A DNA stretch of 20,209 nt from a virus (lineage: Duplodnaviria > Heunggongvirae > Uroviricota > Caudoviricetes): positions 1 through 20,209 of IMG/VR virus record IMGVR_UViG_2671181012_000014; one strand, given 5' to 3'. This document shows positions 2,702 to 20,209 of the stretch, piece by piece. The notes under the pieces were generated by a model. That model did no database searches. It worked only from the letters and a program-made list of their open reading frames with translations, and was not told the DNA's origin. Position numbers and translations under genes: made by a program. How positions within the stretch are numbered: the first letter of the stretch is position 1; each line of letters opens with the position of its first letter.

Positions 2702-3333
2702 AGAGGTCCCCCGGTTGTGCCGCCGCTGTCGCCGGGGTGTTTATGGGTATGCAGTACCTTACCGTTTGATGAGAGCTCACCGCCGGTGTGTTCAATGTTG
2801 CCGCGCATCGTCCCGCCCTTCTGCACTTCCAGCGTGCCGGTAATCAGCCTGTTGGTGCAAACCACCTCCGGTGTGTCCAGGGTGACGCGGGTTGATGCTT
2901 TCACCATGACCACCGGCACCGTGGCAGTAACAGAATCAGAAGCCGTCACGCTGGCCGTTTTAATTCCGCTTACCGTGAGTGCACTGGTTTCAGGTTCATA
3001 TTCAATCACCGCCCCGTCAGGGAAACGGATATGCAGGGCATCAGACGACGCAGACGGCGCGGGGTTATCGCCGGAATAAATCCCCGGCAGAACGAACGCC
3101 GTGTCGAGTTCACCGCCCACGGCCAGAATCAGCACCTGTTCCCCCACGGAAGGTGCCCACCATGTGCGCGAACGTCCGGCGCGATGGGTCAGCCACTGAA
3201 GCCAGTCAGTGCACATGCCGCCGGTCTGCACACGGCAGCGACCGGCGTTAAGGTCGGTTTCGACGATAATGCCGGTGCGGATCATGTTGCGCAGTGCGCG
3301 CGCGAGTTCCTGAATATTTGCGAGAGTGTTCAT
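2698..3333 (-). CDS. V: Baseplate spike/assembly protein gpV
   Basis: 211-aa ORF (MNTLANIQELARALRNMIRTG...), size and position of P2 gpV, first gene of the V-W-J-I-H late operon. Confidence 0.8.
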   Translation of the reverse strand: MNTLANIQELARALRNMIRTGIIVETDLNAGRCRVQTGGMCTDWLQWLTHRAGRSRTWWAPSVGEQVLILAVGGELDTAFVLPGIYSGDNPAPSASSDALHIRFPDGAVIEYEPETSALTVSGIKTASVTASDSVTATVPVVMVKASTRVTLDTPEVVCTNRLITGTLEVQKGGTMRGNIEHTGGELSSNGKVLHTHKHPGDSGGTTGGPL

Positions 3334-3399: not shown

Positions 3400-3852
3400 C
3401 TAACGGTCGAGGTGAGCCAGAATAATCTCTTCAATCATCTGCACATCCTCACCGGTAAAGCCGAGCAGAGGACGCGCCGGATAATCAATTTTCTTACCGT
3501 CTTTCCGGTTTTCTTCCGACAGACCGAACTGATGCACACTGGCGATTTTCGGCGACTTCCCGCCGTAAAATCCCATTGATGCCTGCTCCGGGCTGGCGCG
3601 GATATGCAAAAAACGACTGGTAATAAGTTTCGCAAACATTTTTCGCTTAACGCGACCGGTCTTTTTTCTGGCGCTCTGCTGCTGGCGTGGCACGTAGGGT
3701 GTGCCGTCCGGGGCTTTCTGTGCCATCACCCGACGCTGCTGACTCTGCCGCAGACGTTTCGCCAGTTCGGCACTCAGTCGTCGACGCCCTGACGGTGACA
3801 GCGACTCAATCAGTCCGGTCAGCCGGTCTTCAAAACGCTTAAACTCATTCAT
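3400..3852 (-). CDS. S: Tail completion protein gpS
   Basis: 150-aa ORF (MNEFKRFEDRLTGLIESL...), size and position of P2 gpS; start overlaps R stop. Confidence 0.75.
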   Translation of the reverse strand: MNEFKRFEDRLTGLIESLSPSGRRRLSAELAKRLRQSQQRRVMAQKAPDGTPYVPRQQQSARKKTGRVKRKMFAKLITSRFLHIRASPEQASMGFYGGKSPKIASVHQFGLSEENRKDGKKIDYPARPLLGFTGEDVQMIEEIILAHLDR

Positions 3853-12907: not shown

Positions 12908-13633
12908 TTATGAGACTAATTTGCACAGCCTAGCTATCGATGGGCAGTGTACTTCGAGTGGTTTAATTTCCACATGTTCAATTGTTTCCCAAAGAAATCT
13001 GAACTCTTTTTGATCTGAATAAATATCCTTAGGTTTAACAAAACCTATTGGTCCTGGAATAGGCTCAAGTCCTGTAAACTCTCGTTTATCATAAATCACT
13101 GCGCCCATTTTCGCGCTTTTCAGTCGGATAATTTTATTGAGCGCTTCTGTAACCTCCTCAAAGAAAATACTTGGATAGGCTATCTCTACACAGTAGTTCC
13201 CGAAGGTACTATTCAATTTGGAAGGATTAAATTCTTTTGTAGTACATAATACAAATGCATCCTTAATTGAGTAAAAGCTTTTGCCCTGACCAATGCTTAC
13301 GTTAGAGCACCCTTCACCAATCCCGATCCCAAGACGTGAACACATTTCTACGAAACCAGCATCTGAACTGCCACCACTTATGTTATCAACACTGTAAGAG
13401 TGCATGGCTTCACCTCTATCACCTTGTAGAGGGTCTTCATATGCTCGGCACGTTTCAAGAGTGCTCAACCATACTTTTCCGTCACATAATGCCTCTGCGT
13501 GTATTTTTTCCTTGAAGAATCTATAAACCGGTCTAATAGGTTCATCTTTAGTGAGTATTTTAGAATTCATTTTTATATTTACTTTCGGAAAAGTTTCTTT
13601 TCGTTCTTTTTTTAGACGGCTTTTTCGTCCCAT
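12908..13633 (-). CDS. Hypothetical protein, low-GC cargo gene in the cos-proximal hotspot (position of tin/old in P2); candidate anti-phage defence or superinfection-exclusion gene
   Basis: Only long ORF in a ~37% GC island flanked by ~55-60% GC phage genes. Stop fixed at 12908-12910; start ambiguous: ATG at 13633 (241 aa, MGRKSRLKKERKETF...) or 13570 (220 aa, MNSKILTKDEP...); the ORF-track GTG at 13774 lacks an RBS. No motif I can assign to a known family. Confidence 0.6.
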   Translation of the reverse strand: MGRKSRLKKERKETFPKVNIKMNSKILTKDEPIRPVYRFFKEKIHAEALCDGKVWLSTLETCRAYEDPLQGDRGEAMHSYSVDNISGGSSDAGFVEMCSRLGIGIGEGCSNVSIGQGKSFYSIKDAFVLCTTKEFNPSKLNSTFGNYCVEIAYPSIFFEEVTEALNKIIRLKSAKMGAVIYDKREFTGLEPIPGPIGFVKPKDIYSDQKEFRFLWETIEHVEIKPLEVHCPSIARLCKLVS

Positions 13634-13789
13634 GCTTTCAGTCTCGTACTTGCAGAAAATTTGGTAACCCGTACCGTAAAATACCTGTAAACAAGCAAAT
13701 AGCACAACATACAAAAGGTTTTTAACTTCTAGAAATATAGGCCAACAATCAAACATTAACGTATAAATACGCACACCATTTGGTTAAAT

Positions 13790-17801: not shown

Positions 17802-18077
17802 TTAACGTGGTTCACCGAGACCTAACCACATCAACCAGCCGTCACGAATCTCTTTAGGACGGCTTTCATAAGCCAGTTTTAGTCCGTTATTCCATGCCGG
17901 AAGGTATACCCAATATTCACCAGCACGCCCCGATACTGACTGAGGGTCAGTAATCTCAATAACTGGTAATTTCCCTTTCTCAATCATGCCCCTTACAGCT
18001 CTTGGAGTTTTACCAATGAGTTTTGCAAACTCCTGATAAGGCACGGCATCAGTCACGCTTACAAGCTGTCTATTCAT
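17802..18077 (-). CDS. cox: Cox (excisionase / Pc repressor, directionality factor)
   Basis: 91-aa ORF (MNRQLVSVTDAVPYQEFAKLIGKTPRAVRGMIEKGKLPV...), first gene of the early operon, divergent from C; P2 Cox is 91 aa. Confidence 0.8.
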   Translation of the reverse strand: MNRQLVSVTDAVPYQEFAKLIGKTPRAVRGMIEKGKLPVIEITDPQSVSGRAGEYWVYLPAWNNGLKLAYESRPKEIRDGWLMWLGLGEPR

Positions 18078-18198
18078 CTGCTACGATTCTCCCTTAGTGC
18101 TTCTAATGGCTCCTAATGGCTAATTATTGCCTAAAAGGATAACTCCAGAAGCACAACATTTCACACCATCAGCAAGAAATTACGCAATCGGAGTAATT
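18078..18198. promoter_or_regulatory. Lysis-lysogeny switch region (Pe/Pc promoters, operators)
   Basis: 121-bp spacer between divergent cox and C; contains tandem 10-bp direct repeats TTCTAATGGC / TCCTAATGGC (18101-18120) followed by AT-rich TAATTATTGCCTAAAA, consistent with operator repeats flanking a -10 element. Confidence 0.6.
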
Positions 18199-18498
18199 AT
18201 GTCAATAGACGTTTCGGAGAAGTTGAAGCTAATCCGTGAATCTGAAAGGTTAAACCGTAAAGAATTCAGTGAATTAACTGGTGTAGCCTACAGCTCACTT
18301 TCGAGCTATGAGAGCCGGTCAAAAAACGCTGGAGTTGAAGCCATAATGAAGGTCTTACAACATCCTAGATTTACTAAATATACTTTGTGGTTCATGACTG
18401 ATCAGGTAGCTCCAGAAGCCGGGCAAATTGCGCCCGCTCTCGCACACTTTGGGCAAAACGAAACAACGTCGCCCCACTCCGGTCAAAAGACTGGTTAA
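18199..18498 (+). CDS. C: Immunity repressor C
   Basis: ATG at 18199 preceded by GGAGT; 99 aa (MSIDVSEKLKLIRESERLNRKEFSELTGVAYSSLSSYES...FTKYTLWFMTDQVAPE...), helix-turn-helix-like N-terminus; P2 C is 99 aa. The ORF-track start at 18127 is an extension. Confidence 0.8.
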   Translation: MSIDVSEKLKLIRESERLNRKEFSELTGVAYSSLSSYESRSKNAGVEAIMKVLQHPRFTKYTLWFMTDQVAPEAGQIAPALAHFGQNETTSPHSGQKTG

Positions 18499-18613
18499 CA
18501 ATTTATCGTGAATATATTCATCACAAGTGCCTACTATTGGTGGCTAAATTTCAGCCACCACGAAAAAAGCGATTAGTAGTAGCAAAAAAAAGTACCACTC
18601 GGAGGGTTTTCTG

Positions 18614-19627
18614 ATGGCAATCAAAAAACTCGATGATGGTCGATATGAAGTGGACATCCGCCCTACTGGACGTAATGGAAAACGCATCCGTAGGAAGTTT
18701 GATAAGAAAAGCGAAGCTGTCGCTTTCGAAAAATACACGTTGTACAACCACCACAATAAAGAATGGCTATCAAAACCAACAGACAAACGACGTCTGTCGG
18801 AACTGACACAGATCTGGTGGGATTTAAAGGGTAAACACGAAGAGCATGGGAAATCTAATCTTGGAAAAATTGAAATCTTCACAAAAATAACGAATGACCC
18901 ATGCGCATTTCAAATCACGAAATCCCTTATCAGCCAGTACTGCGCCACCCGAAGAAGTCAGGGTATTAAACCTTCGAGTATCAATCGTGATTTAACATGT
19001 ATTAGCGGCATGTTTACAGCCCTGATTGAAGCGGAGTTATTCTTTGGTGAGCACCCTATCAGAGGGACAAAGAGGCTTAAGGAGGAAAAACCAGAAACAG
19101 GCTATCTCACACAGGAAGAAATTGCCTTACTGCTTGCAGCACTTGACGGCGACAATAAAAAGATTGCGATTCTTTGCCTGAGTACAGGAGCACGTTGGGG
19201 AGAAGCAGCTCGTTTGAAAGCAGAAAATATCATCCATAACCGCGTCACGTTTGTTAAAACGAAAACAAACAAACCACGCACCGTCCCGATCTCAGAGGCT
19301 GTTGCCAAAATGATCGCGGATAACAAACGAGGTTTTTTATTCCCTGATGCTGATTACCCTCGCTTCAGACGAACAATGAAAGCAATAAAACCGGATTTGC
19401 CAACGGGGCAAGCCACACATGCACTAAGGCACAGCTTTGCCACTCATTTCATGATTAATGGAGGAAGTATTATCACGCTACAACGGATACTAGGTCACAC
19501 GCGGATTGAGCAAACTATGGTTTACGCTCATTTTGCGCCAGAGTACCTTCAGGACGCCATTTCTCTTAATCCGCTAAGAGGTGGTACTGAGGCCGAGAGT
19601 GTCCACACAGTGTCCACAGTAGAGTAA
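18614..19627 (+). CDS. int: Tyrosine integrase
   Basis: 337-aa ORF with GGAGGG Shine-Dalgarno; C-terminal catalytic signature HALRHSFATH ... LGHTRIEQTMVYAHF (R..HxxR..Y); P2 Int is 337 aa; adjacent to att core. Confidence 0.9.
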   Translation: MAIKKLDDGRYEVDIRPTGRNGKRIRRKFDKKSEAVAFEKYTLYNHHNKEWLSKPTDKRRLSELTQIWWDLKGKHEEHGKSNLGKIEIFTKITNDPCAFQITKSLISQYCATRRSQGIKPSSINRDLTCISGMFTALIEAELFFGEHPIRGTKRLKEEKPETGYLTQEEIALLLAALDGDNKKIAILCLSTGARWGEAARLKAENIIHNRVTFVKTKTNKPRTVPISEAVAKMIADNKRGFLFPDADYPRFRRTMKAIKPDLPTGQATHALRHSFATHFMINGGSIITLQRILGHTRIEQTMVYAHFAPEYLQDAISLNPLRGGTEAESVHTVSTVE

Positions 19628-19706
19628 CGTTTAAGGGCTTTCAGTGGTAATTTATGCCGCTCAAACCCGCATAGTACCGTTGAAAGCCCCTACTGGTGAC
19701 ACCCTA

Positions 19707-19733
19707 AATCTCCCTTACACGGGCTTATTTTTT
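19707..19733. other. Phage attachment core (attL of the integrated prophage)
   Basis: aatctcccttacacgggcttatttttt is the reverse complement of AAAAAATAAGCCCGTGTAAGGGAGATT, which I recall as the 27-bp P2 att core; located 80 bp downstream of int; the sequence to its right is AT-rich host-like DNA. Confidence 0.7.
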
Positions 19734-19891
19734 ATGCATAAGCCCTATCCCTGGTCACCGTCTTCCATTGACCACATCGATAGAATCTCCCTTCATAGCA
19801 CGATGCCTTTCACGTAACGTCATCGTGCTCGCACAGGTTCCGGCTAAGCACAACCAGAACGCGCATGTTTGACGCTTACCAAAAAATATTC

Positions 19892-20209
19892 TCACTCTCC
19901 ACATTTGAATGTCAGACGAGCGACGCCATGTAATCCTGCACCTTCTGTCTTCAGGTCAACTATCTGCATTTTTTTGCCCTGAGTAACACAGAAATGGGCT
20001 GCATCATTTTTTACTATATTTTCTGCACCAGATATTCTGCCCCTGGCTAAAGAAGCTTCGGCTTCGGTGTAGTATTGGTTATCGAGTTTACGCTGAATAT
20101 TACTTTTATATGCAAGACCAAATTTACCGATACTTGTCTCATCATTATGCACAGCACAACCAGACATAATAAAAATACTAATTAATGATATTGCAGCTAT
20201 CTTTTTCAT
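19892..20209 (-). CDS. yegR: Host small lipoprotein (possibly YegR-like), outside the prophage
   Basis: 105-aa ORF starting exactly at the window end: MKKIAAISLISIFIMSGCAVHN... has a signal peptide and lipobox (MSGC). The yegR assignment is from memory of the E. coli K-12 locus where a cryptic P2 remnant (ogrK/yegZ) abuts yegR; symbol confidence is lower than the CDS call. Confidence 0.55.
   Translation of the reverse strand: MKKIAAISLISIFIMSGCAVHNDETSIGKFGLAYKSNIQRKLDNQYYTEAEASLARGRISGAENIVKNDAAHFCVTQGKKMQIVDLKTEGAGLHGVARLTFKCGE

Follow-up and report, generated by a model that had tools for sequence, protein, structure and literature searches.

The attL junction of phage P2 at the Escherichia coli chromosomal site locI is a known and common object, and it is the described system closest to the region analyzed here. 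Yu, Bertani and Haggard-Ljungquist (1989) are said to have described P2 attL at locI, and Barreiro and Haggard-Ljungquist (1992) reportedly described both locI and the phage remnant that K-12 carries. P2 strongly prefers locI in E. coli C, while K-12 is refractory. The phage is not SOS-inducible and is not induced by DNA damage, so mitomycin C, proposed in a preliminary description of this DNA, is poorly suited to a test for excision.

More broadly, the junction belongs with integration events at the 3' ends of RNA genes (tRNA, tmRNA, sRNA), in which the target gene is rebuilt at one junction, a displaced copy of its end is left at the other, and successive insertions and their remnants pile up at the same site. 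Phage 186, for example, integrates in tRNA-Ile and Fels-2 in ssrA. The locus described below shares these traits and differs in two respects: the target is the terminator of an Hfq-dependent sRNA (CyaR), and the attR-like scar of a putative older remnant appears to serve as the present attB. The CyaR RNA has been given as the insertion site of Wphi2 in E. coli W, of ogr-D' in K-12, and of P2*B in E. coli B (PMC3032704), and the sdsR locus has likewise been described as an attachment site (PMC3333887).

The attL of phage lambda offers a mechanistic parallel. In both systems a heterobivalent integrase contacts arm-type sites as well as the core, and a filament of a small winged-helix directionality factor lies between them; this comparison of Cox with Xis has been drawn previously (PMC3936717). 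The two differ in architecture, as lambda has Xis and Fis sites between its arm-type and core sites, whereas the cox boxes of P2 are 9-mers of mixed orientation. In P2, unlike lambda, the sites for the directionality factor are on the int-proximal arm and IHF acts on the opposite arm, and Cox doubles as a repressor of Pc. Cox filaments bend the arm, drive excision, and block integration (PMC3936717).

The att core and the 3' end of cyaR

The DNA analyzed here (the window) is a stretch of 20,209 nucleotides from IMG/VR record IMGVR_UViG_2671181012_000014 (Caudoviricetes). It comprises about 20 kb of prophage, and the attR of its own genome lies outside it. Near its end, the region 19628-19891 is very probably the int-proximal attL junction (P' arm, core, and bacterial flank) of a P2 (Peduovirus) prophage integrated at E. 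coli locI. With similarly high confidence, we equate locI with the 3' terminus of the cyaR sRNA gene; yegQ/cyaR lie on one side of it and yegR on the other.

The 27-bp att core AATCTCCCTTACACGGGCTTATTTTTT occupies 19707-19733 (plus strand), is present in a single copy in the window, and is identical to the attP core of P2 (AF063097); the Int core feature of the P2 record maps to 19706-19733. Nucleotide homology to P2 runs to position 19734, with 99.2% identity over 18600-19734, while prophage-free E. coli genomes align from 19707 on. Phage sequence thus gives way to chromosome inside the 27-bp core. Each sequence feature of a P2-type attL at locI for which we tested is present, namely the core, an adjacent int gene, the arm sites, the Cox region, and the homology switch. 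The preliminary description had proposed a perfect P2-type core marking the boundary of a P2-type prophage, and both the switch (19707/19734) and the integrase (336 of 337 residues shared with P2 Int) bear this out.

The same junction is widespread. Among 5426 complete E. coli genomes, 817 contain this P'-core-yegR junction, as expected of the recurrently used integration site that had been suggested. The host flank matches 5418 of the 5426 genomes, the best at 99.5% identity, and a database search identifies the flanking gene, previously described only as resembling yegR, as RefSeq yegR. Strain 504838 (NZ_CP025856) served as a proxy lysogen: a 221-nt junction query (19580-19800) is 100% identical in this genome, and identity is 99.1% over 18369-20209. 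This lysogen has two perfect core copies, and its attR reads cyaR-core-P arm-ogr.

The decayed ogrK-yegZ (D') element of K-12, to which the preliminary description had compared this junction, does occupy the same site in the same orientation. There the order is cyaR-core-P arm-ogrK-D'. The fusion point of D' is core position 10, and after it comes the flank that the window shows from 19716 onward. The two elements differ in what was retained, as K-12 has lost everything from D through the left third of the attL core, while the int-side end is intact here.

The core is also the last 27 nucleotides of the CyaR sRNA gene, comprising its terminator loop, 3' stem, and U-tail. The Rfam model RF00112 (CyaR_RyeE) scores 100.7 bits both in K-12 and at the empty site, with a match ending in ...AAUCUCCCUUACACGGGCUUAUUU, and attB in the empty site reads cyaR-core-ATGCATAAGCCC... 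In the window, a search for full-length CyaR (RF00112, 85 positions) returned no hit at the gathering threshold. We therefore dropped the possibility of a CyaR gene within the window, which contains only the last 27 nt of that gene. The core here lacks the 5' half of the CyaR stem and is preceded by the phage P' arm in place of the CyaR body, which identifies 19707-19733 as the displaced 3' end of the gene. That the core coincides with the end of cyaR, and that the flank beyond it is probably itself phage-derived (see below), are observations that did not figure in the preliminary description.

These features suggest how integration would proceed. P2 Int would exchange strands within the 27-bp sequence common to attP and the end of cyaR, and a functional cyaR would be restored at attR from the copy brought by the phage, leaving 19707-19733 as the displaced end. 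By analogy with the proxy lysogen, in which the same structure is found, we infer that a working cyaR has been rebuilt in this way at the attR of the present strain. The 3' stem of CyaR reads ACACGGGC in E. coli and in the P2 core, versus ACGCAGGC in Escherichia sp. E1V33 and E. albertii, a distribution consistent with the E. coli gene end having been supplied by a phage.

The integrase-proximal arm and its Cox region

Judged from the sequence, the cis-acting elements of P2 attL are all present and essentially identical to those of P2. The int gene (18614-19627, plus strand) reads toward the core and encodes the P2 integrase, a heterobivalent tyrosine recombinase with the Pfam domains Int_N and Phage_integrase. 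Its product is 99.7% identical to P2 Int, the core is identical, and the chromosomal site is the same; the P' arm has the same two arm-type repeats, and the Cox site is a single base off that of P2. No difference was found in the att module, and the divergence from P2 is instead in the immunity region. The C immunity repressor (18199-18498, plus strand; 99 aa, with an HTH_3 domain) is 65% identical to P2 C, and Cox (17802-18077, minus strand; Pfam Phage_Cox, 143.6 bits), the excisionase and Pc repressor, is 84% identical to P2 Cox. As the order of C and int is that of the P2 record, C is predicted to be co-transcribed with int from Pc, and by its sequence it is a heteroimmune variant.

The P2 record contains experimentally derived protein_bind features, which we carried over to the window with an offset of 17999. 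The Int P' arm (arm-type) binding region transfers to 19593-19619 (plus strand). A direct repeat, AGTGTCCACA, occurs here at 19598-19607 and 19609-19618, over the last codons of int, and two perfect TGTCCACA sites (19600-19607 and 19611-19618) lie under the P2 "Int P' arm" feature. The tandem AGTGTCCACA repeat fits the published arm-type consensus tgTGGaCa (PMC3448106).

The Cox binding region transfers to 19617-19690. Seven matches to the cox box TTAAA(G/C)NC(A/C) at 7 or more of 9 positions occur in these 74 nt, versus 2.5 per 100 nt across the window, and two of them match at 8/9. The region holds five to six cox-box-like 9-mers in both orientations; the attP of P2 has been described as containing six cox boxes facing two ways, with the same consensus (PMC3936717). 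Based on this near-identity to P2, Int and Cox would be expected to bind within 19593-19690.

Both inverted repeats of the preliminary description are present where it had placed them, as is the partial core copy discussed in the next section. The first of these repeats, IR1 (19635-19689), is a 9-bp inverted repeat formed by GGGCTTTCA (19635-19643) and TGAAAGCCC (19681-19689) with 37 nt between them, and it extends imperfectly to 18-nt arms (19632-19649 and 19675-19692). It had been tentatively assigned to Int-arm or IHF architecture, a proposal that did not hold. IR1 lies wholly inside the Cox footprint (19617-19690), its arms are TGAAAGCCC on opposite strands, each matching the cox-box consensus at 8/9 positions, and no IHF consensus is present; for these reasons its sequence identifies it as two opposed putative cox boxes, and so as part of the Cox architecture. 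A search of 19560-19900 for the IHF consensus WATCAANNNNTTR with at most one mismatch gave no match. The IHF site and a second pair of Int arm sites are located on the other arm (P) in the P2 record, which in a prophage is at attR, and we dropped an IHF site in the attL arm as a candidate.

The repeats in 19628-19891 are modestly above chance. In 5000 mononucleotide shuffles of this interval, two or more perfect inverted repeats of at least 9 bp with a gap of at most 60 arose with P = 0.007, and one or more direct repeats of at least 10 bp within 120 bp with P = 0.02. No intrinsic terminator (stem plus T-tract) was predicted on either strand of 19400-20209; IR1, the second inverted repeat (IR2, see below), and the core hairpin were accordingly discarded as canonical terminators.

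A different function for IR1 is possible, if unlikely: its main role may be in RNA, where a stem-loop at the 3' end of the C-int message would stabilize or regulate int mRNA, besides or instead of IR1 forming part of the Cox DNA site. The RNA is predicted to fold into a stem of about 21 bp that starts 8 nt past the end of int; the fold has -26.1 kcal/mol and z -4.3, and 0/200 shuffles reached it. In Klebsiella phage ST16-OXA48phi5.4, whose Int is 80% identical, the equivalent of IR1 is a perfect 13-bp inverted repeat, and the two left-arm differences between it and P2 (AC versus GT) preserve RNA pairing, in P2 only through G-U, while breaking the symmetry of the DNA. However, this comparison involves only two distinct sequences. 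A scan of IMG/VR for relatives of IR1 returned only loci with 99-100% identical Int, and in seven P2-type modules with an Int about 50% identical the arm could not be aligned and a hairpin did not occur consistently. The entire IR1 interval is within the experimentally mapped Cox site of the P2 record, the cox boxes alone, with both arms at 8/9, account for its symmetry, and no U-tract follows it, so it is not a terminator. We therefore retain the reading of IR1 as a pair of opposed cox boxes.

With IR1 read as Cox architecture, excision can be outlined as it is understood for P2. Int would bridge the two arm-type sites (19598-19618) and the core, Cox would polymerize on the boxes in 19617-19690 and bend the DNA, and IHF would act on the opposite arm, at attR. 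This outline assumes, by analogy, that a Cox only 84% identical to that of P2 acts on attL boxes of the P2 type. Among the differences in Cox are T25P, G26R, R30G, and D33E, and positions 25, 26, 30, and 33 have been probed in the Cox structure paper (PMC3936717).

Alternatively, the junction could belong to a defective, immobile prophage in which the att elements are present but out of use, a reading to which we give little weight. Only half of the element is visible, the related lysogen 504838 has an internal stop in the baseplate gene V, and P2-type boxes are here combined with a Cox that departs from P2 Cox at DNA-facing residues. Yet the int, C, cox, B-like, and A open reading frames are all full length, both att cores of the proxy lysogen are perfect, and the core and P' arm in the window have not decayed relative to P2. 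The view of this region as an attL with intact cis-acting elements is thus preferred.

For annotation, these results set the prophage boundary to the base. They also show the core copy to be the displaced terminus of CyaR rather than an sRNA gene, and place the inverted repeat within the Cox site.

The flank adjoining the core

Past the core, the chromosomal flank itself resembles phage DNA. Alignment with the P arm of P2 delimits a P2-type P-arm relic at 19734-19783 (plus strand), immediately adjacent to the core. In this alignment ATGCATAA of the flank pairs with ACGTACAA of P2 attP, a 16-bp gap follows at the P2 IHF site, and beyond the gap are CTGGTCAC and an identical CATTGACCACATCGA, which holds the second P-arm Int site of P2. 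The relic has thus lost the segment containing the IHF site, and of its arm-type sites one is decayed and one is intact (TGACCACA, 19769-19776). The local alignment score is 38, versus 13.8 +/- 2.3 for shuffled sequences, none of which (0/5000) reached it. As prophage-free genomes have the relic too, it belongs to the fixed sequence of attB in E. coli. In E. coli AST85 the IHF part of the relic is undeleted, while the others have lost it. The only phages found to carry sequence of the host flank are prophage-derived records that include host DNA (ON470606, AY639599).

At the distal edge of the relic, the 10-mer AATCTCCCTT (19784-19793, plus strand) repeats the left end of the core. The preliminary description had regarded it as a partial second core copy; the 10-bp match stands, but it is not a conserved core copy, as the position has five alleles in ten E. 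coli sequences (AATCTCCCTT, AATCCTCCTT, AATACTCCTT, -ATCCCCCTT, and AATTCCCCTT). The 10-mer is most likely a coincidental, allele-specific match, because it is polymorphic, the sequence beyond it is unlike the core or the arm, and the second core of the putative ancient element described below is placed near yegS.

It would take a nested or tandem earlier integration, followed by a deletion ending inside the core, for the 10-mer to be the remnant of a second att core, and we consider this quite improbable. The 10-mer agrees with the core's left end at 10/10 positions (P about 0.02 in this sequence) and sits at the very point where P2 P-arm homology ends, and deletions ending inside the core do happen at this locus, as the mid-core fusion of D' in K-12 demonstrates. 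Nevertheless, K-12, BH100N, ECMA0423, and AST85 match the 10-mer at only 7-8 of 10 positions, what follows it resembles neither the remaining core nor the P arm, the corresponding position in P2 is occupied by spacer and the ogr terminator, and a decayed core copy beside yegS already accounts for the second core of the ancient element. Coincidence remains the favored explanation of the 10-mer.

A second inverted repeat, IR2 (19797-19829, minus strand), is formed by AGCACGATG (19797-19805) and CATCGTGCT (19821-19829) and extends to 14-nt arms with a 5-nt loop. It is situated 63 nt downstream of the yegR stop codon and is not followed by a U-tract. In most E. coli this hairpin has an 11-bp perfect stem, which is weakened here by a G>T change at 19815. 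The minus-strand RNA is predicted to fold at -15.6 kcal/mol (z -2.3) for the window allele and at -20.8 kcal/mol (z -4.7) for the common allele. IR2 is a conserved hairpin that, on these predictions, may be a structure at the 3' terminus of yegR mRNA.

The yegR island as a putative ancient P2-like remnant

The yegR gene (19892-20209, minus strand; the window ends at its start codon) encodes a predicted lipoprotein of 105 aa, annotated in RefSeq as "protein YegR" or "lipoprotein YegR". A Pfam search with YegR returned no family, and no YegR homologues were found in phages beyond records that include the host flank. The gene is part of an AT-rich island of about 0.8 kb, with a GC content of 0.40 versus 0.50-0.54 in neighboring genes.

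In most Enterobacteriaceae, yegS adjoins cyaR without such an island. Scanning species-representative genomes with a cyaR pattern yielded 120 Enterobacteriaceae loci, for which distances to yegS were obtained by tblastn. In 65 of the 120, the yegS start is 74-144 nt past the CyaR U-tail (85 nt in the sister species Escherichia sp. E1V33), whereas in E. coli it is 873 nt after cyaR. Among the 120 loci only E. coli has the island with yegR, and E1V33 lacks it.

The far side of the island, upstream of yegS and outside the window, carries a second relic. In AST85, a homologue of the P2 P' arm is found there, followed by a decayed core, AATTCCCCATCCTTGAACTGATTTTTTAT. Within this relic are counterparts of the two arm-type sites, of the stop codon of int, and of the cox-box region. 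It aligns to the P2 P' arm and core with a score of 92 versus 15.7 +/- 2.3 for shuffled sequences (0/3000 as high), and by BLAST it is 74% identical over 121 nt (E = 7e-14). Directly past it comes the flank that abuts cyaR in E1V33. In the common E. coli haplotype this P' relic is reduced to about its last 55 nt, which are only weakly significant alone (score 24, 15/3000 shuffles); the strong evidence for the P' relic is provided by the long form, a haplotype carried by 23 of 5426 genomes. Similarly, the displaced ancestral core is clear only when the rare AST85 haplotype is compared with P2, whereas comparison of the sequence upstream of yegS in the common haplotype with the cyaR end of E1V33 gave a score of 10, which is not significant.

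The island is therefore framed by a core and P-arm-like sequence at one edge and by P'-arm-like and core-like sequence at the other, and relatives lack it. Residual phage coding sequence (int, ogr, D) was not detected in the island: a tblastn search with Int, directed at an int relic, found nothing, and the Pfam search of YegR was equally negative. Taken together, the sequence comparisons give good support to the view that the island is what is left of an ancient P2-like prophage after gutting, and we hold the evolutionary part of this view to be highly probable. In the simplest reading, a single ancient P2-like prophage would have inserted at cyaR and later been gutted, leaving an attR-like scar (a perfect core with the P relic), yegR, and an attL-like scar (the P' relic with a decayed core). 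Modern P2 would then enter at the first of these, the attR-like scar.

The reverse origin, in which P2 took up host DNA beside cyaR (e.g., by aberrant excision) and the flank is original host sequence, is disfavored to the point of being scarcely credible: phage att regions at RNA genes do carry host-derived gene ends, and the core itself is a segment of cyaR, but the yegS-side relic holds functional phage elements (the end of the int reading frame with its stop codon, arm-type sites, and a cox-box region) with no int gene upstream of it, the island is missing from E1V33 and from the 65 of 120 species loci in which yegS directly follows cyaR, and prophages in Citrobacter, Buttiauxella, Trabulsiella, and others have this type of P-arm sequence after cyaR.

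With the island read as a prophage remnant, the structure of the attB region as an ancient scar is the only part of this analysis that may be undocumented. A literature search, with key primary P2 att papers outside its reach, found no link between yegR and a prophage remnant. The scar is of modest evolutionary interest. A P2-like fossil of about 0.8 kb, with yegR inside it, apparently sits between cyaR and yegS in nearly every E. coli genome, and K-12 would hold two generations of P2 remnants in tandem, while the strain sampled here would hold a third, intact element.

One may speculate further that locI is itself an ancient attR-like scar, yegR its domesticated cargo, and the 3' half of CyaR phage-supplied, and that the decayed arm tunes the use of the site by P2; as a joint reading this is tentative, and on balance we doubt it. 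The tuning, by an arm in which the IHF segment is deleted and one Int site (19769-19776) is kept, is pure conjecture. If true, it would help to explain both the strong preference of P2 for locI and the refractoriness of K-12, where the same core adjoins a complete P arm. Should the relic arm indeed affect the efficiency of integration, locI would be a natural case of a prophage scar conditioning later integrations.

Mosaic composition of the prophage

The prophage is a mosaic that joins an Int and att identical to those of P2 to a diverged C and Cox. Its C protein (window 18199-18498) is only 65% identical to that of P2, and Cox (17802-18077) is 84% identical, with changes that include T25P, G26R, R30G, and D33E. 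Alanine mutants of P2 Cox at positions 25, 26, 30, and 33 keep partial activity (PMC3936717). There are also fewer consensus cox boxes in the Pc region of the prophage (18055-18369) than in that of P2. Together, the Cox changes and the reduced number of boxes at Pc raise the question of whether the specificity of this Cox still fits the boxes in attL.

We also identified a 288-aa ORF on the minus strand (12908-13774) that has no matches in Pfam or PADLOC. It is flanked by the portal/cos end on one side and by replication gene A on the other, which in P2 is where old/tin lie, a known cargo and defence hotspot.

Inverted repeats around the att core

The inverted repeat at the Cox site, with 9-bp arms at 19635-19643 and 19681-19689, is predicted to form a strong stem-loop as RNA directly behind the int stop codon (19628-19696; z -4.3). 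The repeat is more perfect in the Klebsiella phage ST16-OXA48phi5.4 (L132 1447-1490), where 13 of 13 positions pair and Int is only 80% identical. An 8-bp inverted repeat lies across the boundary between the core and the P-arm relic (19721-19745), and consists of GGGCTTAT in the core and ATAAGCCC in the flank, the latter straddling the gap left by the missing IHF-site segment; its predicted RNA fold is weak (z -1.9).

The yegR island

The island of about 0.8 kb that separates cyaR from yegS, and that holds yegR, has a relic of a P2-type P arm on one side and a relic of a P' arm with a decayed core on the other. Based on this bracketing, yegR appears to lie inside an ancient, gutted P2-like prophage. 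The relics occur at 1528-1595 and 2464-2591 in E. coli AST85 (L130, NZ_AP043644), at 2525-2575 and about 3274-3333 in STEC719 (L002), and at about 3740-3805 in K-12 (L003). These positions fall just past the right end of the window, which itself includes the P-arm relic at 19734-19783. The long relic haplotype is found in 23 of 5426 genomes.

In the AST85-type haplotype, the CyaR terminator stem has GCCTATGT in place of GCCTGTGT in its 5' half (L130 1486-1496), which introduces an A-C mismatch when this half is paired with the 3' half of P2 type. Two records filed as phage, ON470606.1 (about 32004-32649) and AY639599.1, contain chromosomal yegR and its flank, and are thus prophage-derived sequences with host DNA attached.

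Insertions at the 3' end of cyaR

We surveyed 120 species-representative loci around cyaR (L005-L124). In eight Enterobacter loci (L010, L060, L061, L096, L098, L099, L104, and L117), a conserved sequence that differs from the E. coli island begins at the CyaR U-tail and resembles the end of a reverse-strand gene, which suggests another element at the same site.

Across the survey, yegS directly follows cyaR in 65 loci and is absent from the 8-kb locus in 24, while 31 carry insertions of 0.2-4.4 kb. The exact P2 core is present in only nine of the 120 loci. Kluyvera is represented among these, and there the pairing between the core and the 5' stem GCCCGTGT is perfect. A P2-type P arm is found immediately 3' of cyaR in 12 species, among them members of Citrobacter, Buttiauxella, Trabulsiella, and Huaxiibacter as well as E. 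albertii, and in these 12 the core matches the stem allele of the cyaR gene at that locus. Throughout the Enterobacteriaceae, cyaR is a hotspot for insertions at its 3' end.
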